Shown in pieces: positions 2,039-56,512 of a DNA stretch of 64,000 nucleotides. Every line of letters begins with the position of its first letter. The first letter of the stretch is position 1. The DNA is from Patescibacteria group bacterium. GTDB taxonomy: Bacteria > Patescibacteriota > Minisyncoccia > Moranbacterales > UBA2206. The position numbers and the translations under genes are program-made. The stretch lies in NCBI GenBank assembly GCA_022709735.1, contig JAKLIG010000002.1, forward strand, positions 1,949 to 65,948, given 5' to 3'. The notes beneath the pieces were generated by a model. That model saw only the letters and a list, made by a program, of their open reading frames with translations. It had not been told where the DNA came from and did no database searches.

Positions 2039-2258
2039 ATTAGAATCTGAAAAAGATGCTTGCCCCGTAGCGAGCCATAAAATGGCTCTGCTACTGGGGT
2101 GATTGAGTTTAAGATTTAAGCTTGACTAAAAATATTCCCTCTGCTAAGCTTTAAATAATCAAGAAAGTCCAATAGTTTTCTCGCTCCGCCTCGGTGGAGA
2201 TAAGAAAACTAACCTCCGTCAAGGACTTTCTTTGAACGGACTTTATTTATATAAATCG

Positions 2259-2343
2259 CTAATCAACACGAATTAAACCCTAATAATCACGAATTCGAGA
2301 AAATTCGAGATAAAATTAGCGTAGATTCGAGAATTATATCATT
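2259..2343 (+). promoter_or_regulatory. 85-bp leader cassette fused to the rpsF start codon (copy 1)
   Basis: ~90% identical to 3419-3503; contains three ATTCGAG words. Confidence 0.7.
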
Positions 2344-3418: not shown

Positions 3419-3503
3419 CTAATCAACACGAATTAAACCCTAATAATCACGAATTCGAGATGATTCGAGATAAGATTAGCGTAGATTCGAGATTTATACT
3501 ATC
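3419..3503 (+). promoter_or_regulatory. 85-bp leader cassette fused to the rpsR start codon (copy 2)
   Basis: ~90% identical to 2259-2343, ending exactly at the ATG. Confidence 0.7.
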
Positions 3504-5332: not shown

Positions 5333-5506
5333 AAATGTTATGCTAATCTGCTAATATAAACTAATCCACGAATTGCAAATTCGCATCATTAGCAATTAGC
5401 TGATTGGTATTTATTCGTTAATTAGCATAGTATTGTGATTGCTTGCTATTATTACTTTCTTATGCTAACTTATATTCTGTAATAAATCAAATAACTTAAA
5501 CGATTA

Positions 5507-9118: not shown

Positions 9119-9189
9119 AGCAATTTACGAAATTACGAATTAAGCGAAAATACGAATTCGTAATTTAGATAGATTCGTATTTTAGTAAA

Positions 9190-17300: not shown

Positions 17301-17949
17301 ATTTTGTCGACAAATTGAAATATTCCACTTCAGAAATTATTTGCAATTTGTGGAGGCTCTTCAATTCTTCTTTGGAAGAACGGTAAATATTTTTGAGTTC
17401 TTCTTGTTTTTCCAAGCCTTCTTTGGTGTCAGCAGAAAAATTCTTGCTAATTTCTTTCTGCTTATTTTTATATTCCTGATCAAGTTGCGTCAAAGTTTTT
17501 TCTCTTTCATTTTCATCCACTGAAAGCACGACATAACTGGAAAAATAAACTATCTTTTCCAAATCCTGAACGCCCATGCCAAGCGCTAGACCGATCTTTG
17601 AAGGCACTCCGCGCAAAAACCAAATGTGAGAAACCGGCACTGCCAGTTTGATGTGTCCCATTCTTTCGCGTCGAACAATCGAGCGAGTGACTTCCACTCC
17701 GCATTTGTCGCAAACGATACCTTTGTAGCGGATCCTTTTATATTTTCCGCAATAACATTCCCAGTCTTTTGAAGGTCCGAAAATTTTCTCGTCAAAAAGA
17801 CCTTCCCGCTCATAGCGCTGGGTTCGATAATTTATTGTCTCCGGTTTGGTCACTTCGCCGTGCGACCATTCCATAAAATTTTCCGGACTGGCGATTGAGA
17901 GCCTTACGCTACTGAAATCGCTAATTTTGGTGGTAGAAAATGAATCCAT
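14365..17949 (-). CDS. rpoC: DNA-directed RNA polymerase subunit beta'
   Basis: Zn finger CYCGKYKRIRYKGIVCDKCG, NADFDGD catalytic motif, trigger loop; true start is MDSFSTTKI at 17949. The track's 13-aa N-terminal extension (to 17988) is translation of a repeat element. Confidence 0.95.
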   Translation of the reverse strand: MDSFSTTKISDFSSVRLSIASPENFMEWSHGEVTKPETINYRTQRYEREGLFDEKIFGPSKDWECYCGKYKRIRYKGIVCDKCGVEVTRSIVRRERMGHIKLAVPVSHIWFLRGVPSKIGLALGMGVQDLEKIVYFSSYVVLSVDENEREKTLTQLDQEYKNKQKEISKNFSADTKEGLEKQEELKNIYRSSKEELKSLHKLQIISEVEYFNLSTKYAQVFSASIGAEAIRNILCGMDNQQEIEKLKKILKDDENLDKKKILKRIKLFQGFLKAGMKLEWMLPTIIPVIPPDLRPMVALDGGRYATSDLNDLYRRIINRNNRLKKLIEIGAPEVITRNEKRMLQEAVDALFDNSARRSQVSVAASTGQRRPLRSLADTLKGKQGRFRQNLLGKRVDYSGRSVIVVGPSLKLHQCGLPKKMALELFKPFIINKLIERELAYNVRSAGKMVEGETEEAYDILDEIISHHYVLLNRAPTLHRLSIQAFQPVLIEGKAIQIHPMVCSAFNADFDGDQMAVHVPLTDKARWESENLMLSARNLLKPASGEPITTPTLDMVLGCYYITHIVSGVKGEGKIFSNFDEAILANELNQVDVRAKIKVDHKGKILETSIGRIKLNLIIPKEIGFLNEEMTKKELKLLVAKVLEICGREAAAIFVDQVKDLGFRSVTKSGISWGMNDLVIPKNKKEIMDKAEEKVELVKKQYNMGLLTEEERKNKVIEIWNEAKNKITDAVRASIDKEGPVYSMVYSKARGSESVVVQMAGMKGLMAGPTGETIELPIKSCFKEGLNVLEYFISTHGARKGMADTALRTATAGYLTRRLVDVSQDIIVREADCKDKVGAYIFKEDSDRIGQNFASRVIGRVLVEDIADPKTGEIVVEKGNLVTKEQGEKIEKMGITKVKIRTAVTCKTARGVCQKCYGIDLGRGNVVEIGQAVGIVAAQAIGEPGTQLTMRTFHIGGIAGSDITQGLPRVEEIFEARPPKGEAIISEVNGKVLSVEKQDKNFVIKIEAEDKQKTIKEYQVPSGSTLKISEGEMIGKGTQLSEGHVDLKKLYKTMGWEEVHRYIIREIQEVYAAQGEGINDKHIEVIIRQMFSRITILSQGDTDFSIGDILEQDEFDEANETIKKAGGEKAVGEKMLLGITKVALSTDSFLSAASFQETARVLINAASQGKEDKLRGLKENVIIGKLIPAGTGYRK

Positions 17950-17960
17950 AATAATTATTA

Positions 17961-18065
17961 AATGCGACTCTAATTTACGAATGAGCATTCGAATGTTTCG
18001 AATGATTCGGTTTTATTCGAGTCATTCGTGTGCAGATTCGAGTCATTCGGGTCGCTTATTAAATT
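17961..18065 (-). repeat. intercistronic ~105-bp palindromic element, subfamily A, copy I (rpoB-rpoC spacer)
   Basis: near-identical to 29149-29266 except that copy lacks here the 20-bp CCTGCC palindrome; built of CATTCGAATG/ATTCGAGT words; terminal inverted repeat GCGACYC...GAGTCGC. Confidence 0.85.
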
Positions 18066-24411: not shown

Positions 24412-24477
24412 ATTGCCAATGCTCTTATCTTATATTTAAATATTTTACTCGTCAACTAATTAGCTAAACTTCATAGT

Positions 24478-24611
24478 AAAATCCCGTCCACCTGCCTGAT
24501 TTTCCTATCTAATTATAATTCCTCAATTATTTCAGTTAGATAATCTTTATTCTTAGTTGAGGAAGAATATAGCAAAATAAGAAAATCTGGCAGGCAAGTA
24601 CGGGATTTCAC
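24478..24611. repeat. tRNA-proximal palindromic TIR element, copy 1
   Basis: outer IR AAAATCCCGT.../...ACGGGATTT; inner TIR CCTGCCTGATTTTCC...GAAAATCTGGCAGG; central palindrome CCTCAAT...AGTTGAGG; related to copies at 55752, 56000 and 56405. Confidence 0.75.
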
Positions 24612-29148: not shown

Positions 29149-29266
29149 AATGCGACTCTAATTTACGAACCTGCCTGCCGGCAGGCAGGTGAACATTCGA
29201 ATGTTTCGAATGATTCGGTTTTATTCGAGTCATTCGTGTGCAGATTCGAGTCATTCGGGTCGCTTA
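29149..29266 (-). repeat. intercistronic palindromic element, subfamily A, copy II (tig-clpP spacer), carrying the 20-bp palindrome CCTGCCTGCCGGCAGGCAGG
   Basis: identical to the copy at 17961-18065 except that TGAG is replaced by a 23-bp segment containing the perfect palindrome (approx. 29173-29192). Confidence 0.85.
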
Positions 29267-33049: not shown

Positions 33050-33772
33050 CTAAAATAATGCTCTTGTTCCGCGAAGCGCCGTATCAATTGCTCTAACAGC
33101 CACAAATCCAGAAAGCGCAACGATTATTCCAATAATTGAATAGGTCATATTTCTTTTGGCTATCTCTATAATTTTTTCATCACCTGACGCTAAAAGATAT
33201 TGTCCACCAGAAATAATAAAAGCAATTACAGTAATAATTCCGATAATCCTCAATAACCAATTCAAAATATTAACTAAAATGTTTTTTATTCCGGGTGAAT
33301 CAGGAAGCCCTGCTTTAGAAACAGAAGTAAAATCCAGTTCCCCATTAGCTGTTCCGACTGCTCCATTAGGATTATTACTATTGCCATTATTATTACTATT
33401 ATTTGCATTATTATTGCTATTATTTGCATTACCATTTCCACATACTCCAGTATCAGCACAACTCATATTATACCAATTACTAGGATCGCAATTAGCCTTG
33501 CTAGATGAACAACTAGCACCATTAACACAACATCCGACACTAGCCGTTTCGTTAGAATTAGAATTAGAATTAGAATTATTATTATTATTTACATTCACAC
33601 ACCCTACTTCAAGACAAGTTAATTCATACCAATTAGCAGAATTACAGCCATCTTTATTTGTTGAACAAGTCGTGGAGCAACAGCCAGCATTAGCTGAAGA
33701 CGCAATGGCGAAAACAGCCAAAAAAACAAACACTAAAAAAATTAAATTAAAATAGAATGAATATTTTTTCAT
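33050..33772 (-). CDS. pilin-like TM-hairpin protein paralog 1 with Cys-rich, Asn/Ser-rich ectodomain
   Basis: signal peptide; Cys-rich domain with NNNNNSNSNSNSN tracts; C-terminal conserved TM-hairpin LLASGDEKIIEIAKRNMTYSIIGIIVALSGFV shared with the four neighbouring genes. Confidence 0.5.
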   Translation of the reverse strand: MKKYSFYFNLIFLVFVFLAVFAIASSANAGCCSTTCSTNKDGCNSANWYELTCLEVGCVNVNNNNNSNSNSNSNETASVGCCVNGASCSSSKANCDPSNWYNMSCADTGVCGNGNANNSNNNANNSNNNGNSNNPNGAVGTANGELDFTSVSKAGLPDSPGIKNILVNILNWLLRIIGIITVIAFIISGGQYLLASGDEKIIEIAKRNMTYSIIGIIVALSGFVAVRAIDTALRGTRALF

Positions 33773-33794
33773 TTTTTACCATTAAATAGCTTAG

Positions 33795-34172
33795 TTAAAA
33801 TGAACTAGAATTAAGCATATTCTGCGCCGCAGCAAAGACCACATAACCAGCTAACCCCACAATTACTCCAATAATCGAATACATCATAGCTTTTTTAGCA
33901 TTTCCTGCTCGCGTTTCATCTCCGGCCGCCGTAAGATACATGATTCCAGCAATAATAAATCCGATAAGAGAAACCACACTCAAGACTCCCAAGAGCCACT
34001 TAAGAATATTTTCTATTATTCCAAAAATTGTTCCGGTCGGCAGGCCATAATTATCATCTTGAAGTCCGTCACTCTTTGGGTCTCCAAGGCCAAAAAGAGC
34101 TAAGGATACTTTTGGCATAAATAGCATTGTCCCAACATAAATTGCTATTAATATTTTTTCTATTTTTTTCAT
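33795..34172 (-). CDS. pilin-like TM-hairpin protein paralog 2 (VirB2/TrbC-like architecture)
   Basis: signal peptide plus MYLTAAGDETRAGNAKKAMMYSIIGVIVGLAGYVVF...NMLNSSSF. Confidence 0.5.
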   Translation of the reverse strand: MKKIEKILIAIYVGTMLFMPKVSLALFGLGDPKSDGLQDDNYGLPTGTIFGIIENILKWLLGVLSVVSLIGFIIAGIMYLTAAGDETRAGNAKKAMMYSIIGVIVGLAGYVVFAAAQNMLNSSSF

Positions 34173-34236
34173 ACTTTTTTTGTTCCATAAAATAAATTAT
34201 ATTTTATGAAATTAATTTTTATTAATAATTATTATT

Positions 34237-34617
34237 TTAAAACTTCGCCGTTGCATTGAGCAAGGCTTGTGCTGCCTTAAAAAACACAAATCCTGAAAAT
34301 CCCACAATCACTCCAATAATTGAATATGTCATAGCTTTTTTAGCATTTCCTGCTCGCGCTTCATCTCCGGCAGCGGTAAGGTACATAAGTCCAGAAATTA
34401 TAAAAGCAATAAAACAAATTACCTCCAGTGTTCCCAAAAGCCAAACGACTAAATTAGAGACGATACCAAAAACTGATGAGTCTGGAAGATTAAATTGTTT
34501 CAAATCATCAACCTTCCATTGAGCAAAAATTTTTGCAGGGAAAAATGAGATGGCTGAAAATATTGCAAGTGATAGAATTTTATTTCTAATTTTTATTTTC
34601 ATAATTATTCGCGTCAC
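34237..34617 (-). CDS. pilin-like TM-hairpin protein paralog 3
   Basis: signal peptide plus MYLTAAGDEARAGNAKKAMTYSIIGVIVGFSGFVFF...LLNATAKF. Confidence 0.5.
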   Translation of the reverse strand: MTRIIMKIKIRNKILSLAIFSAISFFPAKIFAQWKVDDLKQFNLPDSSVFGIVSNLVVWLLGTLEVICFIAFIISGLMYLTAAGDEARAGNAKKAMTYSIIGVIVGFSGFVFFKAAQALLNATAKF

Positions 34618-34769
34618 TTCCGCACCTGCCTGCCAGCAGGCAAATTTAAACAGAAATGGCAGAAAAGAAAAATTTACATTTATAATTATACCACGCTTTT
34701 AAAAAAATAAAAACAGCCCGTAATCCACAGGCTATTTTTATTTTATTTTGAAATTTCAAAATACGCTTT

Positions 34770-35126
34770 TTAGAATCCAGCGTTAGAATTAAGCATATTT
34801 TTAGCAAAGCTAAGGGCTACGAGTCCAGCTAAAGCTACAATTACTCCAATAATTGAATACATCATCGCGTTTTTAGCTGTACCTATTCTCGTTTCATCTC
34901 CAGCTGCTGTAAGATACAAAATTCCGGCAATACAAAATCCAATCACGCCAACAATCCCAACAGCTGCCAAAAGCCAGTTCATTATATTGGTAATAATTCT
35001 CATAATAGTACTACTAGGAAGATTTGTTCCCACTGGTGGATAATATTGCGCGCCAGCCAAAGCAGGCATCAAAAGAAGTGACCCTGAAATTATAGAATAT
35101 GCAACTGATTTTATTTTATTTTTCAT
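34770..35126 (-). CDS. pilin-like TM-hairpin protein paralog 4
   Basis: signal peptide plus LYLTAAGDETRIGTAKNAMMYSIIGVIVALAGLVAL...NMLNSNAGF. Confidence 0.5.
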   Translation of the reverse strand: MKNKIKSVAYSIISGSLLLMPALAGAQYYPPVGTNLPSSTIMRIITNIMNWLLAAVGIVGVIGFCIAGILYLTAAGDETRIGTAKNAMMYSIIGVIVALAGLVALSFAKNMLNSNAGF

Positions 35127-35194
35127 CTTGCACCTCCTTTCATAAATAACATCTTAATTTTTCTTTATTTTTTATATTCTCTCGCCTTTTATCT

Positions 35195-35950
35195 TTACGA
35201 TACGCTGATAAGACTGGAGATTTGCCTTACAACTACAAGCGCGCTAAGCGCTACTACAATTCCAATTATAGCATAGGTAATTATTTTTTTTGCCGTATCT
35301 ATTCTTTTTTCATCTCCATAAGCTGTAAGATACATTCCTCCGCCGATGACTAAAGAAATTATAGCAATAATTCCAAAGATTGACAATAAGAAATTCAAAA
35401 CATTAACTGCAATCATTTTTATAGTAAGTGTTGACCCGGTGCCGGCAACATCTGGTCCGGCCTGAAGAATAGCCAAAATTTCATTAAGAAATGCTGGCGC
35501 TGCCAAAGCAATCGCTAACCCGACTACTGCGCCTGTCCAAGTTTGTTTGGCGCGCGTTACCATCTTTTCGTTTCCGGCCGATGACATATACATAATTCCG
35601 CCAATAATCATAAATATCACTGCGATAATTACAATTATTCCTCTAAGCTTGCTCATAAGCGAAGTGAGCAACTCTTGAACAGAATTGATTTGAAGAGGAT
35701 TAGCAAATGTTGTAGTAGATGAGTTCGCAGTAGCCGGATTTATATAACCAGGGCAAGTAGACATAGTTATGCAAGCTGCCTGATCAAAATATGTCGTACC
35801 CGCTCCACAATCCATAGCGGAATTAGCACTTGAACAAACTCCCATGGCAGTAGCAAAGCAACAGCCTGCTGTTTGCGCTTGAACCAATTTAGTATTCAAA
35901 AAAAATCCTGCAATAAAAACTAATATAGTAATGATAAAATATTTTTTCAT
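35195..35950 (-). CDS. pilin-like protein paralog 5: Cys-rich ectodomain plus two tandem TM-hairpin units
   Basis: signal peptide; AGCCFATAMGVCSS...C...C...C; two repeats of the MY(M/L)(S/T)AxG(N/D)EK...AK hairpin. Confidence 0.5.
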   Translation of the reverse strand: MKKYFIITILVFIAGFFLNTKLVQAQTAGCCFATAMGVCSSANSAMDCGAGTTYFDQAACITMSTCPGYINPATANSSTTTFANPLQINSVQELLTSLMSKLRGIIVIIAVIFMIIGGIMYMSSAGNEKMVTRAKQTWTGAVVGLAIALAAPAFLNEILAILQAGPDVAGTGSTLTIKMIAVNVLNFLLSIFGIIAIISLVIGGGMYLTAYGDEKRIDTAKKIITYAIIGIVVALSALVVVRQISSLISVS

Positions 35951-39397: not shown

Positions 39398-41173
39398 ATG
39401 ACTGATACAATTCTCAAAAAAATATCCTTGCCAAGTTCAATCACTGTCAAAAAATTCAGCGAGGTTTTAAATATTCCCTTAAATGTTGTCATCACCGAGC
39501 TTATGAAAAATGGAATTCTTGCAACCATCAATGAAAAGATTGATTTTGAAACGGCATCGATTATTGCTGGAGACTTAGGCTTTGAAGTTTCCGAGGAAAT
39601 TTTAGAAGCCGGAGAAAAAATGACCATTGAAAAATTAAATGAGGAACTTAAGAAAGAAAAGGAATCTTCTGATATTCTCAAGAGTCGCGCTCCAATCGTC
39701 ACAATCTTGGGACATGTTGACCATGGAAAAACTACCCTTCTTGATACCATTAGAAAAACTAATGTGGCGGCCAAAGAATCGGGCGGAATCACCCAGCACA
39801 TCAGCGCCTATCAAGTCAAGAAAAAGGGCCAACTCATCACCTTTGTTGATACGCCTGGACATGAAGCCTTTAGCGCTATGCGCGAACGAGGCGTGAGCAT
39901 TGCTGATATCGCCGTTCTGGTTGTCGCCGCTGATGACGGAGTACGCCCGCAAACCAGAGAAGTTATTGAATATCTTCTGGCAAAAAAAATTCCGACAGTT
40001 GTTGCGATAAATAAAATTGACAAACCTTCGGTTAATATTCAACGAGTGAAACAAGAATTGGCTGATGCTGGAATAGTTTTGGAAGAATGGGGCGGACAAG
40101 TGCTCTCTGCTAAAATTAGCGCCAAACAAAATATCGGCATTGATGATCTCTTGGATAATATTCTTCTTATCAATGAAGTGGAAGACTTTAAGGCTAATTA
40201 CAAAAGAGATCCTTTGGGAATTGTTTTGGAATCACATCTTGATCCGCAAAAAGGACCGATTGCCACCGTGCTTATCAAAACTGGAACACTCAAAGAAGGA
40301 CAAGATGTCATTGCCGGCGCAAGTTTCGGCCGAATAAAAAGAATTGAAGATTTCAGAGGAACAAGGATCACCGAAGCTGTTCCGGGAACTCCTGTAAGCA
40401 TTATCGGTTTTCATTCTGCTCCAAGCTCCAATGATATTTTGCAAGCTTCGCCCGAAAAACACCAAGGAAAATCAAAATCACAATCCGGACTTTTGAATAA
40501 TTCCGAAGAAGAAGCTTTTAGCTCTCAAAAAATGATGCGCGTTATCGCTTCGGAGAAAATAAAAAGATTAAATATAATTTTGAAATCAGATGTGCAAGGA
40601 TCGCTTGAAGCGATTGGACAGATTTTGGGCGAAATAAAATCCCAGGAAGTGGCGATTGATTATATCGGAACTGGCGTCGGCAACATCACTGAATCAGATG
40701 TCCGCTTGGCTGGAAGTTCCAATGCTACTATTTATGGATTCAATGTAGAAATTACGCCGGTCGCCAAAAGAATGGCTGAGACTGCCAAAGTAGAAATCAA
40801 AAATTATAAAATTATTTATGAACTCGTGGAAGATATAAAAAACAAATTGATTGCCATGCTTCCTCCGATCATCGAAAGAACTGATTTTGGAAAAATGAAA
40901 GTTTTGGCGCTTTTCAAAACTGGAAAAGGCGACATGATTATCGGCGGAAAAATAACAAACGGGAAGATGGTTAACAAATCCTTGATTGAAGTTATGAGAA
41001 ACGATGCAATTATCGGACAAGGAAAATTAAACAATCTTCAAGAAAATAAAGTTAATGTGGACGAATGCGTTTCTGGTAAAGAATGTGGAATAACCTTTTT
41101 GGGTTCGACAAAAATAAAAGAAGGCGATGTATTATTGAGTTATAAAGAAGAAGTAAAGAAGCAAACACTTTAA
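39398..41173 (+). CDS. infB: translation initiation factor IF-2 (short N-terminus)
   Basis: G domain GHVDHGKTTLLD...DTPGHEAF...NKID; C-terminal beta-barrels. Confidence 0.9.
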   Translation: MTDTILKKISLPSSITVKKFSEVLNIPLNVVITELMKNGILATINEKIDFETASIIAGDLGFEVSEEILEAGEKMTIEKLNEELKKEKESSDILKSRAPIVTILGHVDHGKTTLLDTIRKTNVAAKESGGITQHISAYQVKKKGQLITFVDTPGHEAFSAMRERGVSIADIAVLVVAADDGVRPQTREVIEYLLAKKIPTVVAINKIDKPSVNIQRVKQELADAGIVLEEWGGQVLSAKISAKQNIGIDDLLDNILLINEVEDFKANYKRDPLGIVLESHLDPQKGPIATVLIKTGTLKEGQDVIAGASFGRIKRIEDFRGTRITEAVPGTPVSIIGFHSAPSSNDILQASPEKHQGKSKSQSGLLNNSEEEAFSSQKMMRVIASEKIKRLNIILKSDVQGSLEAIGQILGEIKSQEVAIDYIGTGVGNITESDVRLAGSSNATIYGFNVEITPVAKRMAETAKVEIKNYKIIYELVEDIKNKLIAMLPPIIERTDFGKMKVLALFKTGKGDMIIGGKITNGKMVNKSLIEVMRNDAIIGQGKLNNLQENKVNVDECVSGKECGITFLGSTKIKEGDVLLSYKEEVKKQTL

Positions 41174-41250
41174 AAAATTTTCAATAATTATTTTTTGAAA
41201 ATTATTTAATTGAAAATTTATTGAAAATTGAGAATTGAAAATTTTAAATT

Positions 41251-41583
41251 ATGAATGAAAGAATAAATAAAATCAACGAGCTTATAAAACAACATGTGAA
41301 TGATATCGTTCTCAAAAACCTCTCTTTAAAAGATGGGGTTTTTATTACTATCGCCAAAGTTGACACAACAGAGGATCTTCGTTATACTCGGGTGTTTGTT
41401 AGTATTTTCCCGGAGAAAGAAATTCCTTATGCCACAAAAACTTTGGAAAAAGAACTTTTTGAAATCCAGGGAAAACTTAACAAAAAACTGCATATGCGAC
41501 CACTGCCCAAAATTGAATTCCGTCTTGATATGACAGAATCCAAGGCAGATGAAATAGAAAAAATTTTAAAAGAAATAAATTAG
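41251..41583 (+). CDS. rbfA: ribosome-binding factor A
   Basis: 110 aa; KH-like RbfA motif VFITIAKVDTTEDLRYTRVFVSI; infB-rbfA synteny. Confidence 0.8.
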   Translation: MNERINKINELIKQHVNDIVLKNLSLKDGVFITIAKVDTTEDLRYTRVFVSIFPEKEIPYATKTLEKELFEIQGKLNKKLHMRPLPKIEFRLDMTESKADEIEKILKEIN

Positions 41584-41690
41584 GCGACTCGAATAACTCG
41601 AATTTTCACCCGAATGTTTCGAATTTATTCGAATCATTCGAGTGTTCACCTGCCTGCCGGCAGGCAGGTTCGTAAATTAGAGTCGCTTTT
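41584..41690 (+). repeat. intercistronic palindromic element, subfamily B, copy III (rbfA-nrnA spacer), with the 20-bp CCTGCCTGCCGGCAGGCAGG insert
   Basis: GCGACTCGAATAACTCGAAT...CATTCGAGTGTTCA[CCTGCCTGCCGGCAGGCAGG]TTCGTAAATTAGAGTCGC, then a T-run; starts immediately after the rbfA stop codon. Confidence 0.85.
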
Positions 41691-41694
41691 ATAT

Positions 41695-42654
41695 ATGAAA
41701 AAGTTTTCTCAAGAATTTAATACCCTTAATTTCGTCATCAAAGAATCAACTAACATTCTTCTTTTTGCGCATTCCCGTCCGGATTCTGATACCGTCGGTT
41801 CGGTTTTGGCTCTGCGAGAATATATAAAAAATCTTGGAAAAAATGTTGATATCGCCTGCCTTGATCCCTATCCAGAGTATCTCAAAGATTTGGCGCCAGA
41901 TTATTTTAATTTTCCGGATCATTTAAATCTGGAAAAATATAATTTAATCATCGCTACTGACAGCGTGGAAAGAGGCTTTCAAAAAATTAAGGATAAATTT
42001 ACAGAAAATCAGGTCGTCGCGCTTCTTGATCATCATCCGGATATAACTATTCAAGGTGACATCAATATTATTGAGGCCAGCTATTCTTCCGTTTGTGAAA
42101 TTATTTATAATTTTTTTGAATTTAATAAAATAAAACTCACTCGGCAGATTTCTACTTTTTTACTCTTGGGAATTTTGGGAGACACTGGAATGTTCCAACA
42201 CTCCAATACCACTCCGCGCATTATGGAAATTGCTTCCGCCTTAATGAAAAATGGTGCACCACTTTCAAAAATAATCAGCGTGGCTTTTTCCAATAAAAAT
42301 ATTTCAACTTTGAAACTTTGGGGCCGGGCTTTTGAAAAAGCTAAAATTAATCCAGAAAATGGAATGATCGTTTCATTTATTTCTGAAAAAGAACTCGAAG
42401 AATGCGGTGGCAGCCTTGAAGACATTTCTCAAGTTTCAACTATCCTAAATACAGTCCCTGGAACAAAATTCGCGCTGGTTCTTTCGGAAAGAGGCGATGG
42501 GATAGTCAAGGGCAGTCTTAGGAGCGAAGAATATAAAGGCGTGGATGTTTCGCAAATTGCCGCGCTCTTCGGCGGTGGTGGCCACAAGCTTGCATCAGGT
42601 TTTGAAATTGAAGGAAAAATTGTTGAAACCGAAAATGGCTGGCAGATAATATAG
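41695..42654 (+). CDS. nrnA: DHH-family phosphoesterase NrnA (bifunctional oligoribonuclease/pAp phosphatase)
   Basis: DHH motifs HSRPDSDTVGS, DHH, GGGGH (DHHA1); true start is MKKFSQE at 41695. The track's N-terminal extension is repeat-derived. Confidence 0.75.
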   Translation: MKKFSQEFNTLNFVIKESTNILLFAHSRPDSDTVGSVLALREYIKNLGKNVDIACLDPYPEYLKDLAPDYFNFPDHLNLEKYNLIIATDSVERGFQKIKDKFTENQVVALLDHHPDITIQGDINIIEASYSSVCEIIYNFFEFNKIKLTRQISTFLLLGILGDTGMFQHSNTTPRIMEIASALMKNGAPLSKIISVAFSNKNISTLKLWGRAFEKAKINPENGMIVSFISEKELEECGGSLEDISQVSTILNTVPGTKFALVLSERGDGIVKGSLRSEEYKGVDVSQIAALFGGGGHKLASGFEIEGKIVETENGWQII

Positions 42655-42741
42655 GTGACTCGAATAACTCGAATTTTCACCCGAATGTCTCGAATTTATT
42701 CGAATCATTCGAGTGTTCATTCGTAAATTAGAGTCGCTTTA
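42655..42741 (+). repeat. intercistronic palindromic element, subfamily B, copy IV (nrnA-nfo spacer), without the 20-bp insert
   Basis: identical to copy III except for lack of the 20-bp palindrome at GTTCA^TTCG. Confidence 0.85.
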
Positions 42742-42756
42742 TGCTAAAATAATCTT

Positions 42757-43602
42757 ATGAATATCGGCGCTCACATTTCAATCGCCGGCGGAATTATTGA
42801 AGCCCCCAAAAGAGCTTCCGATTTAGGCTGTGAATGTATGCAAATTTTTACCCGTTCTCCCCAAGGCGGAAAAGCACCAAGCCTCACAAACTCCGTTTGT
42901 GAGGAATTTAAAATTTCAAATTTAAAATTTAAAATTAAGGAGGTTTATATCCATACTCCCTACTACATTAATTTCGCCTCTTCTAATAATCGCATTCGCT
43001 ATGGGTCAGTCAGCGTTGTTCGCGATGAGTTGGAAAGAGGAAATCTCATTGGCGCAAAATATGTCATGACTCATCTTGGCACTGCCAAAGATTTGGGGCA
43101 AAAAGAAGCTACTGCCAAAACTATTAAAATGCTTTCAAAAACTTTGGAAGGATATACTGGAAAAACAAAATTACTTTTAGAAAACAGCGCCGGCGCCGGA
43201 GAAATTATTGGCGATGATCTCTCTGAACTTTCAGAAATTATCAAAGGCGTTGCTTCGGATGCCATCGCTGGAATTTGTCTCGACACCCAACATTCTTTCG
43301 CTTCCGGATATGATTGGCGAAAATCTGATGTAAGGGCAATTCATGAATTGCCCCTGCTAGAAAGAATAGATAAAGAAATTGGACTGGATAAAATAAAATT
43401 AATCCACGCTAATGACAGTCTGACGGATTTCAATTCCAAACGAGACCGCCACGCCCATATTGGCGAAGGAAAAATTGGTTTGGACGCCTTTCAAAACATT
43501 GTCGCCTTTGCTGAGAAAAATAATATAGATATGATCCTAGAAACAGAACATGATAAAGTGAAAAAAGATATTGAAATTTTGAAAAATTTCCGCGATAAAT
43601 AA
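42757..43602 (+). CDS. nfo: deoxyribonuclease IV (endonuclease IV, AP endonuclease family 2)
   Basis: TIM-barrel motifs HAPYLINLAS-like, HLGT, ICLDTQHSFASGYD, HANDS...RDRHAHIGEGKIG, ILETE; contains an in-frame 22-bp palindrome at 43333-43355 coding AIHELPL. Confidence 0.85.
   Translation: MNIGAHISIAGGIIEAPKRASDLGCECMQIFTRSPQGGKAPSLTNSVCEEFKISNLKFKIKEVYIHTPYYINFASSNNRIRYGSVSVVRDELERGNLIGAKYVMTHLGTAKDLGQKEATAKTIKMLSKTLEGYTGKTKLLLENSAGAGEIIGDDLSELSEIIKGVASDAIAGICLDTQHSFASGYDWRKSDVRAIHELPLLERIDKEIGLDKIKLIHANDSLTDFNSKRDRHAHIGEGKIGLDAFQNIVAFAEKNNIDMILETEHDKVKKDIEILKNFRDK
43333..43355. repeat. REP-like palindrome AGGGCAATTCATGAATTGCCCT (copy A, inside the nfo CDS)
   Basis: perfect 22-bp palindrome; related copies at 43606-43630 and 43925-43952. 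Confidence 0.85.
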
Positions 43603-43605
43603 TCG

Positions 43606-43636
43606 TAGGGGCGATTCACGAATCGCCCCTTTTTAA
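43606..43636 (+). terminator. REP-like palindrome copy B acting as terminator-like hairpin after nfo
   Basis: TAGGGGCGATTCACGAATCGCCCCT followed by TTTTTAAAT, 4 nt after the nfo stop. Confidence 0.65.
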
Positions 43637-43702
43637 ATATACGCAAAACAAAAACAGAAAACCAAACCGTCTCCAAAATTTTGATTATTCCCAAAATGGG
43701 AT

Positions 43703-43727
43703 GTACCTGCCTGCCGGCAGGCAGGTT
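43703..43727. repeat. 20-bp palindrome CCTGCCTGCCGGCAGGCAGG at the truncated 5' end of the RAYT-like gene
   Basis: perfect palindrome GTACCTGCCTGCCGGCAGGCAGGTTTT immediately upstream of the GTG start. Confidence 0.85.
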
Positions 43728-43729
43728 TT

Positions 43730-44170
43730 GTGACAATTTGCACGAAAGACCGGGAAGAATTATTTGGAGAAATTAAAAATGGAGAAATGGTTTTGAATGA
43801 ATTGGGAAAAATCGTTTTTAAAAATTTAAAAAATATTCCATATTATTTTGAAAATATAAATTTGGATAAATTTATTGTGATGCCAAATCACGTTCATTTA
43901 ATTCTTGAAATTAACAAAAATATCGTAGGGGCAATTCATGAATTGCCCCTACAAAAACGGCGGAATATGTTGATTCCGAAAATAATCGGCAAATTTAAAA
44001 TGTTATCCGCCAAAGAAATAAATATTCTGGCAAATAATTCTGGGAATCCATTATGGCAACGAAATTATTACGACCATATTATCCGAAACGAAATTGAATT
44101 AAACAAAATTCGCGAATATATATTGGAAAATCCGAAAAATTGGGAACGCGATAGAAATAATATTGTGTAG
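43730..44170 (+). CDS. IS200/IS605-type HuH tyrosine transposase, REP-associated (RAYT)-like, N-terminally truncated (possible pseudogene)
   Basis: HuH motif FIVMPNHVHLILE and catalytic-Tyr motif WQRNYYDHIIRNE; TICTKDREELFGEIKNGEMVLNELGKIV matches this family. GTG start only; upstream in-frame region has no ATG and is occupied by the 20-bp palindrome. Contains palindrome copy C (43925-43952). Confidence 0.7.
   Translation: MTICTKDREELFGEIKNGEMVLNELGKIVFKNLKNIPYYFENINLDKFIVMPNHVHLILEINKNIVGAIHELPLQKRRNMLIPKIIGKFKMLSAKEINILANNSGNPLWQRNYYDHIIRNEIELNKIREYILENPKNWERDRNNIV
43925..43952. repeat. REP-like palindrome GTAGGGGCAATTCATGAATTGCCCCTAC (copy C, inside the RAYT-like CDS)
   Basis: perfect 28-bp palindrome coding VGAIHELPLQ. 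Confidence 0.85.
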
Positions 44171-44265
44171 GGGCAGACCTTGCATCTGTCCTTTTTTATA
44201 TTCACCCGTTTACCCAAATAAAAATCGGCAGGAACCACGATGGACTCCTGCCGAGTTAATAAACG

Positions 44266-44643
44266 CTAGCAACAATTTAATCTAATATAAACAACATCCT
44301 TGGCTCTTTTTGAAAGAAAATCATTAATTTGCTTGATATGATTTATGGCATATTCTTTATTCGTAGGAGATCCGGATACAAAAATTATTTTTTTTACCTC
44401 AGAAAGAGCCTTCTTCATTGCCTCTGCAATTTTTTCCGTGTTACAGCAAACGCATTCAGTTGTAAAAAATCCTACCTTAGTTTCCAAATCGTTAGTAATT
44501 CCAAGCCCTTTCATATGAACTCTCCATTGATCTTCCGTTAGTCCGCAACCATTCTTATAGAAAAAGAATCTGGCTTTTCTAGGGTATAATTCATTTTTTA
44601 CCATTTGCATAATACAGTCATAATATTCCTCCTTAATGCTCAT
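44266..44643 (-). CDS. hypothetical Cys-rich protein
   Basis: 125 aa with CG..., ECVCCN and C-terminal CC. Confidence 0.3.
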   Translation of the reverse strand: MSIKEEYYDCIMQMVKNELYPRKARFFFYKNGCGLTEDQWRVHMKGLGITNDLETKVGFFTTECVCCNTEKIAEAMKKALSEVKKIIFVSGSPTNKEYAINHIKQINDFLSKRAKDVVYIRLNCC

Positions 44644-44696
44644 AGAATTCTCCTTTTCTAAAATTAGTTGAATATAGATGGGCGCCTGCCATTTCG

Positions 44697-45110
44697 TTAA
44701 TGCTTTTCGAAAGCAATTATTAAAAACAAAAATCCCTTCTTATTTCCAATTTCCAAGAAATCTTTTCTAGTTTTTATTAGACCAATTTTTTCAAAAAGCA
44801 TAGACATTATTTCTTGTACTGATCTAACCAGATGAGGAAGATTAATTTGTATATTCTTTATGCCTCCTACATTCCATTCAAATTCTCCTGAACTTTCTTT
44901 TCCGAATTTTGTTTTTTTTATGAATTCCACGAGCCCCTTGCAGATCCATCCAATACCATCCACATTATCTCCCCTAAATTCTTCTATAATACCAACGGCT
45001 TCATGCAATGATCTGGAATTAAATAATTCATTTTTTAATTGCCCAAGTTGCTCTATTATTTCAAAATAATTCATCTTTCTTCTCCTTTTTATTGAGTTTT
45101 TAATATTCAA
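44697..45110 (-). CDS. hypothetical protein
   Basis: 137-aa ORF (alternative start MNYFEII); no motif. Confidence 0.3.
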   Translation of the reverse strand: MNIKNSIKRRRKMNYFEIIEQLGQLKNELFNSRSLHEAVGIIEEFRGDNVDGIGWICKGLVEFIKKTKFGKESSGEFEWNVGGIKNIQINLPHLVRSVQEIMSMLFEKIGLIKTRKDFLEIGNKKGFLFLIIAFEKH

Positions 45111-55680: not shown

Positions 55681-55752
55681 AGCGGGTAACGGGAATCGAA
55701 CCCGTCGCTCGTCCTTGGCAAGGACGTATATTAGCCACTATACGATACCCGC
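55681..55752 (-). tRNA. tRNA-Gly(GCC)
   Basis: GCGGGTA...anticodon loop TTGCCAA...CGGGTTCGATTCCCG TTACCCGC. Confidence 0.85.
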
Positions 55753-55890
55753 CTGCCTGATTTGCTTACTTTATTATTTATCCCCAACTATTTAAGTTAT
55801 ATAAATTTAATTCTTAGTTGAGACTATTTGATAAAATAAGCAAATCTGGCAGGCACGCCCACCTTGAGCAAGTTTGGCAGGCACGCCCTT
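55752..55890. repeat. tRNA-proximal palindromic TIR element, copy 2 (abuts the tRNA-Gly 5' end)
   Basis: CCTGCCTGATTTGC...GCAAATCTGGCAGGCACGCCC, plus a second GGCAGGCACGCCC 16 bp later. Confidence 0.7.
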
Positions 55891-55927: not shown

Positions 55928-55999
<72 letters not shown>

Positions 56000-56106
56000 C
56001 TACCTAATTTTCCTATCTTATTATAATTCCTCAACTGTTTCAGTTATATAATCTCTATTCTTAGTTGAGGTAAAATATAACAAAATAAGAAAATTTGGCA
56101 GGTAAA
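56000..56106. repeat. tRNA-proximal palindromic TIR element, copy 3 (abuts the tRNA-Phe 5' end)
   Basis: CCTACCTAATTTTCC...CCTCAACTG...CAGTTGAGG...GGAAAATTTGGCAGG; ~97% identical to copy 4. Confidence 0.8.
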
Positions 56107-56374: not shown

Positions 56375-56410
56375 AACGAGGTGCTCTAGCCATTGAGCTA
56401 AGCGTGCCTG
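56375..56410 (-). pseudogene. tRNA 5'-half remnant (acceptor, D-arm, start of anticodon arm)
   Basis: GGCACGC TTAGCTCAATGGCTAGAGCA CCTCG TTCAT... then no 3' half; D-arm identical to the adjacent tRNA-Val; abutted by TIR-element copy 4. Confidence 0.55.
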
Positions 56411-56512
56411 CCTAATTTTCCTATCTTATTATAATTCCTCAACTGTTTCAGTTATATAATCTTTATTCTTAGTTGAGGTAAAATATAACAAAGTAAGAAA
56501 ATTTGGCAGGCG
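56405..56512. repeat. tRNA-proximal palindromic TIR element, copy 4
   Basis: GCCTGCCTAATTTTCC...GGAAAATTTGGCAGGCGAG; near-identical to copy 3. Confidence 0.8.

Follow-up and report, generated by a model that had tools for sequence, protein, structure and literature searches.

The 64,000-nucleotide (nt) window (the whole stretch of DNA that was analyzed), positions 1,949 to 65,948 of contig JAKLIG010000002.1 from a Patescibacteria group bacterium of the Moranbacterales lineage, carries four copies of a palindromic element, each located between two genes of a housekeeping operon. These four copies belong to an undescribed dispersed non-coding palindromic repeat family of Patescibacteria (candidate phyla radiation [CPR]), in which gain, loss, and replacement of members far outpace the divergence of the flanking DNA. 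The family is probably a new family of dispersed repeats similar to enterobacterial repetitive intergenic consensus (ERIC) sequences, miniature inverted-repeat transposable elements (MITEs), and REPINs (hairpin-forming pairs of repetitive extragenic palindromic [REP] sequences), which turns over at operon junctions and is selfish or near-neutral rather than a conserved regulator.

Anatomy and distribution of the repeat family

With the core of the element taken to run from the GCGAC clamp (GTGAC in the fourth copy, c4) through GTCGC, the copies in the window and the palindromes nested in two of them are as follows.

17964-18055 (-): c1, subfamily A, 92 nt, in the rpoB-rpoC spacer; rpoB stop codon at 18068-18066, rpoC ATG at 17949-17947
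29152-29263 (-): c2, subfamily A with nested GC palindrome, 112 nt, in the tig-clpP spacer; 99% identical to c1
41584-41686 (+): c3, subfamily B with nested GC palindrome, 103 nt, in the rbfA-nrnA spacer
42655-42737 (+): c4, subfamily B, 83 nt, in the nrnA-nfo spacer; 95% identical to c3
29170-29189 (no strand): 20-bp GC palindrome CCTGCCTGCCGGCAGGCAGG, nested in the right arm of c2
41649-41668 (no strand): 20-bp GC palindrome, nested in the right arm of c3

The presence of four copies in two subfamilies, proposed earlier on a sequence-only reading of the window, is supported by alignment in one orientation and by a shuffle test: the 3' 18-mer TTCGTAAATTAGAGTCGC is invariant in c1 to c4 and has four matches in the window at up to 3 mismatches, versus 0.08 expected from shuffles. 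The 99% identity of c1 and c2, which lie 11 kb apart, extends over 86 nt, with a shared flank of 12 nt on the 5' side and 6 nt on the 3' side; that of c3 and c4 (95%) covers 74 nt, and the A-type and B-type arms are 78-86% alike. The close similarity within each pair argues for copying inside this genome in the recent past. The extra perfect 20-bp palindrome occupies the same position in c2 and c3 and is absent from their respective partners. The flanking genes rpoB, rpoC, tig, clpP, rbfA, nrnA (DHH/DHHA1), and nfo (AP_endonuc_2) were confirmed by Pfam, and each copy does lie, as had been stated, between the stop codon of one gene and the start codon of the next. The distances from the stop codon to the core are 10, 3, 0, and 0 nt for c1 to c4, and those from the core to the downstream ATG are 14, 16, 8, and 19 nt. 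A distance of 0-1 nt from the stop codon, claimed originally for all four copies, thus holds for the cores of c3 and c4 but not for those of c1 and c2, because the AT-rich flank common to c1 and c2 had been counted as part of the element. On its downstream side, c4 directly adjoins a TATGCTAAAAT sequence upstream of nfo, which relatives also have there. The N-terminal extensions of rpoC and nrnA in the list of open reading frames (ORFs) are indeed artifacts of c1 and c3: the true rpoC start is at 17949 (MDSFS...), in agreement with MDSIT and MESIT of relatives, and nrnA is on public record both as 319 amino acids and as an extended version of 346.

The 23 distinct full-length elements collected, 73-119 nt in length, each consist of an inverted pair of unlike arms of ~35-50 nt, with a 5-bp GCGAC/GTCGC clamp closing both arms. 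The conserved right arm (~41 nt) reads ATTCGRGWC ATTCGRGTGYTCA TTCGTAA ATTAGAGTCGC. Both arms are built of short units that are spaced 7-13 nt apart (mode 8-9) and separated by linkers of 3-7 nt: C(G/T)AAT units number 73 in the left halves versus 8 in the right halves (the CCAAT form also occurs in left arms), and ATT(C/A)G units number 79 in the right halves versus 5 in the left halves. No element carries TTCGTAAATTAGAGTCGC on both arms, so the polarity of the arms is real and not an artifact of how the copies were found. The left arms in the window use CGAAT, which gives rise to TTCGAA mini-palindromes, and those of most other genomes use CTAAT or CCAAT, so that the mini-palindromes are gone there. 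It is the sequence of the right arm that is conserved in the family, and not TTCGAA.

Some elements carry, in either arm, a nested GC-rich hairpin; it sits at one fixed position (on the left, at the mirror position), and its sequence varies by genome (CCTGCC..GGCAGG, CGCC..GGCGG, or CCGTC..GACGG). Inverted repeats, GCGAC(N)C(N)AAT and ATTAGAGTCGC, form the termini, and the element has no coding capacity, as is typical of MITEs. In one Moraniibacteriota metagenome-assembled genome (MAG), the layout is permuted, with the clamp facing a 9-16-nt loop and the outer ends complementary; solo arms, which are decayed forms, occur in three loci (L010, L017, and L028).

An exact-match scan for TTCGTAAATTAGAGTCGC covered one genome per prokaryotic species, with the window's own genome not among the matches. 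The 18-mer was found, within the same arm architecture, in 19 loci of ~9 species-representative MAGs, with record titles that include Moraniibacteriota, Yanofskybacteria, Parcubacteria, "Saccharibacteria," and "Bdellovibrionales." The last of these labels is doubtful, because the proteins of that MAG are 41-80% identical to those of the window and syntenic with them. A metagenome scan added 32 further loci, ~17 of which are true elements; the excluded chance matches, approximately half of the 32, lie mostly inside one conserved coding gene of an unrelated organism. Yanofskybacteria and Moraniibacteriota are treated by NCBI as separate candidate phyla, and RpoB of these MAGs is 62% identical to that of the window. 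The presence of the family in many genomes and several candidate phyla does not support the earlier suggestion of a genome-specific recognition factor and refutes the alternative that only four copies exist as a result of a recent local duplication. Two copies from one genome resemble each other more closely than two that occupy the same junction in different genomes. Rfam searches of the whole window at gathering thresholds returned tRNAs only, those of c1 and c3 in E-value mode returned generic miRNA-like noise only, and a full-text literature search found no description of the terminal sequence or of such repeats in CPR.

Turnover at operon junctions

Three junctions, rbfA-nrnA, tig-clpP, and rpoB-rpoC, were compared, each with those of two to four relatives, whose proteins are 80-86% (NrnA), 89-92% (ClpP), and 80-81% (RpoC) identical to the window's; clpP nucleotide identity among five genomes is 77-92%. 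The spacers, with relatives designated by locus, are as follows.

rbfA-nrnA, window: 111 nt, c3
rbfA-nrnA, L056: 29 nt, no element
rbfA-nrnA, L058: 32 nt, no element; only AGTCGCATTT in a 5-bp mini-hairpin, GCGGC-GCCA-GTCGC
rbfA-nrnA, L057: 142 nt, unrelated palindrome
rbfA-nrnA, L059: 123 nt, TACGAA/TTCGTA-type palindrome
tig-clpP, window: 131 nt, c2
tig-clpP, L063: 11 nt, no element
tig-clpP, L060: 140 nt, periodic palindrome with TACGAA units and a GC hairpin
tig-clpP, L061: 119 nt, periodic palindrome with ACAAAT units
tig-clpP, L062: 99 nt, periodic palindrome with CTGATT units
rpoB-rpoC, window: 116 nt, c1
rpoB-rpoC, L065: 62 nt, no hairpin (minimum free energy, -4.1 kcal/mol)
rpoB-rpoC, L064: 196 nt, CCAAAT/ATTTGG-type palindrome

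Presence or absence at orthologous sites, as expected of mobile repeats, is thus seen at these junctions, and because they are empty or differently filled in relatives, the element is dispensable for these housekeeping operons. L061 and L062 share nucleotide identities of 88% in tig, 92% in clpP, and 82% in the non-coding spacer upstream of tig, and their tig-clpP spacers align at just 55% and differ in unit motif. In the ftsK-rodZ-recA block, an element is found at different junctions in the window, L014, and L026. In the otherwise empty L058 spacer (3469-3500), the mini-hairpin is followed by ATTTTAAAAT, which together make up the terminal clamp and 3' flank of the family without the interior; going by this sequence, the mini-hairpin is a possible deletion footprint of an element.

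Both neighbors are visible for 28 copies, which occupy 26 co-directional junctions, one divergent junction, and one convergent junction. At the co-directional junctions, 17 copies are in the sense orientation and 9 in the antisense orientation (two-sided p=0.17), or 13 and 9, respectively, without the four copies of the window. The idea that all copies have the same orientation relative to the upstream gene therefore holds for the four window copies, all of which are sense, but not for the family as a whole. Placement always directly after a stop codon does not hold as a family rule either; unoccupied spacers at these junctions are 11-62 nt long, so closeness of the elements to stop and start codons, which is seen throughout the family, is to be expected. 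The neighbors of the elements are ordinary housekeeping genes, and all-against-all clustering of 626 flanking ORFs revealed no recurrent linked gene; the only clusters were NTP transferases, an ABC transporter pair, and the FtsK/RodZ/RecA synteny. Genes of the window are mostly on the minus strand from ~4.6 to 38.7 kb and mostly on the plus strand from there to ~49 kb, with the switch at ~38.2-38.9 kb. As c1 and c2 belong to the minus-strand part and c3 and c4 to the plus-strand part, orientations relative to transcription and to replication are inseparable within the window.

A rival explanation, in line with the sequence-only reading, is a conserved cis-acting operon RNA, whose long hairpin between cistrons would be a site of processing by RNase III or another enzyme, a 3'-end stabilizer, or an attenuator by which neighboring genes are expressed independently. 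In keeping with such a role, every copy is placed in a probably transcribed spacer, which in 26 of 28 cases separates co-directional genes, and the four in the window are all sense. The arm has kept its sequence across candidate phyla, both the window and a Yanofskybacteria MAG have an element in the rpoB-rpoC spacer, and folding is strong, each window copy forming a long hairpin with z-scores between -5.3 and -8.8 for either strand. However, 9 of the 26 copies at co-directional junctions are antisense, and the junctions are empty or differently filled in close relatives. In seven well-aligned short-class elements, which were used for the covariation test, 94.6% of the cells are paired, versus 20-34% when the partner column is slid, yet no compensatory covariation was detected (score of 0.051; shuffles averaged 0.064, and 435 of 500 scored at least as high), and the variable positions are mostly mismatched or unpaired. 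RNAalifold applied to all 23 elements kept only the 5-bp clamp, because insertions and deletions break the column register. In 19 of the 23 elements, folding is better, by a mean of 3.0 kcal/mol, for the strand whose 5' arm is the strong one, and in the window this is the antisense strand of all four host operons. An intrinsic terminator has a short GC-rich stem with a run of U behind it. In a consensus scan of positions 41000-45000, a region without c1 and c2, no terminator-like site was found at c3 or c4; the lack of an Rfam match, noted above, also speaks against a cis-acting RNA.

Both arms are thus conserved as sequence, there is no evidence of selection on mRNA structure, and there is little sign that the hairpin is a structure selected at the RNA level. 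The likeness to REP sequences and bacterial interspersed mosaic elements (BIMEs) that had been pointed out stands insofar as this is a dispersed, hairpin-forming, intercistronic family; it does not extend to a conserved mRNA stabilizer or attenuator, given the lack of covariation, the poorer folding of the sense strand, and the variation of the junctions. The absence of orientation bias and of conserved structure had been named in advance as the outcome that would count against an intercistronic function; this is largely what was found, which weakens the idea and makes a conserved cis-acting RNA an unlikely explanation.

Proposed mobilization, possible host function, and other readings

For the selfish or near-neutral repeat favored here, we infer copy-and-paste mobilization, in which an enzyme encoded elsewhere would act in trans to copy elements from one site to another. 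The elements would land in, and drop out of, very short AT-rich spacers between co-directional genes. The self-complementary insert could fold out of the DNA or the transcript, so that the upstream stop codon and the downstream start codon would stay close and housekeeping operons would tolerate the insert. Any effect on mRNA processing or stability would then be a side effect, not the reason for the existence of the element.

Several observations weigh against this scenario. The fraction of co-directional junctions (26/28) exceeds the 75% expected from the gene map of the window (p=0.015), and there is an excess of sense copies, which is non-significant; together, these hint at constraints beyond neutrality. 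No copy was found in viral contigs (two scans) or in phage or plasmid records (blastn), no consistent target-site duplication was seen in the flanks of 23 elements, and neither an autonomous parent element nor a linked transposase was seen in ~60 loci. The base preceding the 23 elements tends to be A or G and the one following them T, and a 9-nt direct repeat around c1 is in part the flank common to c2. Densities come from parts of genomes: the 64-kb window has four copies, the closest representative MAG has six exact 18-mers in ~200 kb, and L041 has ~4 elements in 15 kb. A 41-nt arm so conserved across candidate phyla could reflect selection for a host function instead. Finally, a family copy resides in the rpoB-rpoC spacer of a Yanofskybacteria MAG as well, that is, in two candidate phyla. 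Vertical conservation at this junction was considered and rejected, as the two closest relatives have no hairpin (L065) or a different palindrome (L064); given these, the Yanofskybacteria copy is best read as an independent occupation of a permissive site.

As for the enzyme, a candidate is encoded in the window itself, next to a solo form of the GC palindrome.

43730-44170 (+): Y1_Tnp (IS200/RAYT-like) gene, N-terminally truncated; Pfam PF01797, E=4.8e-8 and 1.3e-7
43706-43725 (no strand): solo GC palindrome with TTTT after it, located at the 5' edge of the Y1-like gene; listed as terminator-like in the scan

The elements could accordingly be single-strand hairpin substrates of this HUH Y1 transposase, in the manner of REPINs and REP-associated tyrosine transposases (RAYTs). 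The protein has the HVH and YYDHIIR motifs, and its gene retains its position after nfo in L058 (5397-5972), with synteny kept as expected of a domesticated RAYT. Further points in favor are the lack of target-site duplication, the difference in fold stability between the strands, the pairing of two inverted repeats into one long hairpin as in a REPIN doublet, and the nesting of GC hairpins at one fixed target position. On the other hand, REP sequences are imperfect palindromes of 20-40 bp with a conserved GTAG or CGTC tag at one end, but no such conserved tag is present in 23 elements, and the ~41-nt arms are arrays of ATTCG units, not palindromes themselves. RAYTs are single-copy genes flanked by their own repeats, but the repeats on either side of the Y1 gene are GTAG-tagged palindromes and the GC palindrome rather than elements of this family, the nearest of which, c4, ends 993 nt upstream, beyond nfo. 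In addition, the window Y1 protein lacks ~20 N-terminal residues compared with the intact 191-amino-acid orthologue in L058, to which it is 58% identical; no Y1 homologue was found by tblastn in 19 element-bearing genome loci, and L058, with its intact gene, has no element within 8 kb. With a C-terminal remnant remaining in L057 (5614-5735), the pattern looks like that of a vertically inherited gene decaying in some lineages. The Y1 protein is a candidate for the mobilizing enzyme, as a minority hypothesis with a weak link, and the REPIN/RAYT-type explanation for the family is quite improbable; a RAYT link would suit the small GC and GTAG hairpins better than the 100-nt elements.

The GTAG-tagged REP-like palindromes, GTAGGGGCRATTCAYGAATYGCCCC, are located at 43330-43357, 43605-43629, and 43925-43952 and within the window are confined to this 1-kb neighborhood. 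Two of them lie in frame within coding sequence (nfo and the Y1 gene) and one is just past the nfo stop codon. The 20-bp palindrome CCTGCCT(G/A)CCGGCAGGCAGG is a dispersed element among Moranbacteria, found in the window at 29170, 41649, 43706, and 34625, as well as in L001, L018, and L059; it occurs both nested in 100-nt elements and solo, the solo form being terminator-like.

Another explanation sees the elements as binding-site arrays for a CPR-conserved DNA- or RNA-binding protein that reads phased ATTCG-type units, with the arrays homogenized within each genome by co-evolution. The conservation of sequence rather than pairing would fit such a protein, as would units every 7-13 nt with a mode of 8-9, the greater likeness of copies within a genome than of same-junction copies between genomes, and direct ATTCGTA arrays upstream of tig in three relatives. 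These arrays consist of four direct ATTCGTA (or ATTAGTA) repeats without a complementary arm (L060, ~520-560; L061, ~530-575; L062, ~575-610), and either an old solo arm or a genuine array of binding sites would account for them. However, close relatives differ in unit motif at the same junction (TACGAA, ACAAAT, CTGATT, and CCAAAT), several types of unit are found side by side in a genome, some junctions are empty, units are spaced irregularly with no helical repeat, and no candidate protein was found. The factor recognizing TTCGAA cores, as originally envisaged, is not supported either, as most other genomes lack the TTCGAA palindromes. Binding-site arrays are regarded as very doubtful. A CIRCE/HrcA operator was considered for the inner GCACTC...GAGTGC, which looks like CIRCE half-sites, and dismissed, based on the general features of CIRCE, because the half-sites are spaced by 25-45 nt, not 9.

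Arrays of tandem interspaced guide RNA (TIGR), reported along with their Tas proteins from CPR, consist of 5-15 units with two alternating 8-12-nt repeats and 9-nt spacers and are located beside a Nop-domain Tas gene (PMC12045711). Despite the CPR host, the ~9-nt periodic repeats, and the hairpin potential, a TIGR or other guide-RNA array is extremely improbable, and the TIGR-Tas assignment was rejected on anatomy and gene context, since the units form the mirror-image halves of one palindrome, with linkers of 3-7 nt, the copies are scattered singly, and their immediate neighbors are rpoB/C, tig/clpP, and rbfA/nrnA/nfo.

Related palindromes and known repeat systems

Words related to the arm units are enriched in intergenic versus coding DNA of the window, 3.1-fold for ATTCG/CGAAT and 6- to 7-fold for ACGAAT/ATTCGT. 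The spacers at 2255-2343, 2851-2932, and 9119-9189 do contain related units, as had been remarked earlier. The short elements recorded in such spacers are as follows.

9119-9189 (-): TACGAA/TTCGTA-type short element without clamp, in the ftsK-rodZ spacer
2255-2343 (+): degenerate hairpin of periodic CTAAT/CGAAT ... ATTCGAG/ATTAG units, shortly before a start codon
3418-3505 (+): second copy of the 2255-2343 element, 95% identical

Both arms of the 9119-9189 element match the rbfA-nrnA spacer of L059 (E=8e-5), and L014 carries a full family element at the orthologous junction. Further short hairpins with CTAAT/CGAAT and ATTCG/ATTAG(C) units lie just upstream of start codons at 2851-2932 and 5340-5432; by eye, from partial translations, the genes near the hairpins between 2255 and 5432 resemble those for ribosomal proteins S18 and L28, an assignment that is unconfirmed. 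Yet another family of periodic palindromes, with AATTTTC/GAAAATT units, is represented at 41174-41250 of the window, in L057 (2903-3019 and 4461-4510), and in L059 (4461-4570) and occupies the infB-rbfA and nrnA-nfo junctions in several relatives.

The clamped family is thus one part of a broader population of periodic palindromes. The unit types seen so far in periodic palindromes are CGAAT, TACGAA, ACAAAT, CCAAAT, CTGATT, and GAAAATT, each palindrome consisting of an AT-rich unit repeated three to five times, a loop, and the complementary units. All of these might belong to one superfamily that colonizes, empties, and re-colonizes operon junctions in Moranbacteria and related CPR, driven by a new mobilization system or by a local palindrome-generating process; this bolder proposal is rather unlikely. 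If it were true, the GCGAC-clamped family would be the most widely shared member of the superfamily. Mobilization by a structure-reading enzyme would then amount to a new system specific to these reduced genomes, analogous to integrase/attC and RAYT/REPIN, and local origin would amount to a new palindrome-generating process.

Two other sets of repeats were noted in the window. Hairpins of ~121 nt bounded by CCTGCC...GGCAGG, 60-93% identical to each other, each lie beside a tRNA gene (24474-24594, 55735-55855, 55982-56102, and 56390-56510). The 33050-35950 region contains five minus-strand ORFs with internal direct repeats of 189-197 nt and 62-76% identity, which suggests tandem paralogous genes.

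Genomes of CPR/Patescibacteria are ~1 Mb in size, tightly packed, and usually thought to be repeat-poor. A repeat family that is spread across candidate phyla and sits inside core operons such as rpoBC would be a component of CPR genome dynamics for which no description was found. It also has practical consequences: the elements cause false N-terminal extensions (as for rpoC in the ORF list of the window and the 346-amino-acid nrnA product in public databases) and break assemblies, two short assemblies of the source organism ending just before clpP, at the edge of the element. Whether a junction is occupied could be used as a strain marker in uncultured lineages, and, if a dedicated enzyme moves the elements, they would provide a handle for finding that enzyme.

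Of the known systems, integron attC sites are similar in that they are imperfect palindromes of comparable length just 3' of a stop codon, with one strand that folds better and a structure that is more conserved than sequence across the wider class. The present elements differ from them in residing in core housekeeping operons instead of cassettes, in lacking the R''/R' core sites (RYYYAAC/GTTRRRY), and in having no fixed orientation; no integrase gene was found among the neighboring genes examined.

Correia elements of Neisseria, which duplicate TA, and other MITEs are likewise short and non-coding, have terminal inverted repeats, lie beside or between genes, form co-transcribed hairpins, and are present or absent depending on the strain. 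In contrast to these, the family shows no target-site duplication, and is self-complementary throughout and not at the termini alone; no autonomous insertion sequence with matching termini was seen in ~60 loci.

REP/BIME and REPIN-RAYT are systems of extragenic palindromic repeats (PMC3116915, PMC3733652, PMC5581495). They share with the family dispersed, hairpin-forming, extragenic repeats, the lack of target-site duplication, homogeneity within a genome, and, in this window, the presence of a RAYT-like Y1 gene. They differ in that the family is shared between candidate phyla rather than belonging to one lineage, and the missing GTAG/CGTC tag and the lack of RAYT adjacency set it apart from REP/REPIN.

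In its behavior, the family is closest to ERIC sequences, also known as intergenic repeat units (IRUs), with REPINs and Correia-type MITEs next. The ERIC/IRU elements of enterobacteria and vibrios are imperfect palindromes of ~127 bp. The sequences are unrelated, and the arms of the new family are built of units spaced by 7-13 nt, are systematically unlike each other, and occur in CPR hosts. Like ERIC/IRU, however, the family comprises imperfect palindromes of ~100 bp that lie in transcribed spacers, often within operons, occur in both orientations, are conserved in sequence across distant hosts, vary in length through insertions at fixed sites, and have no known transposase.

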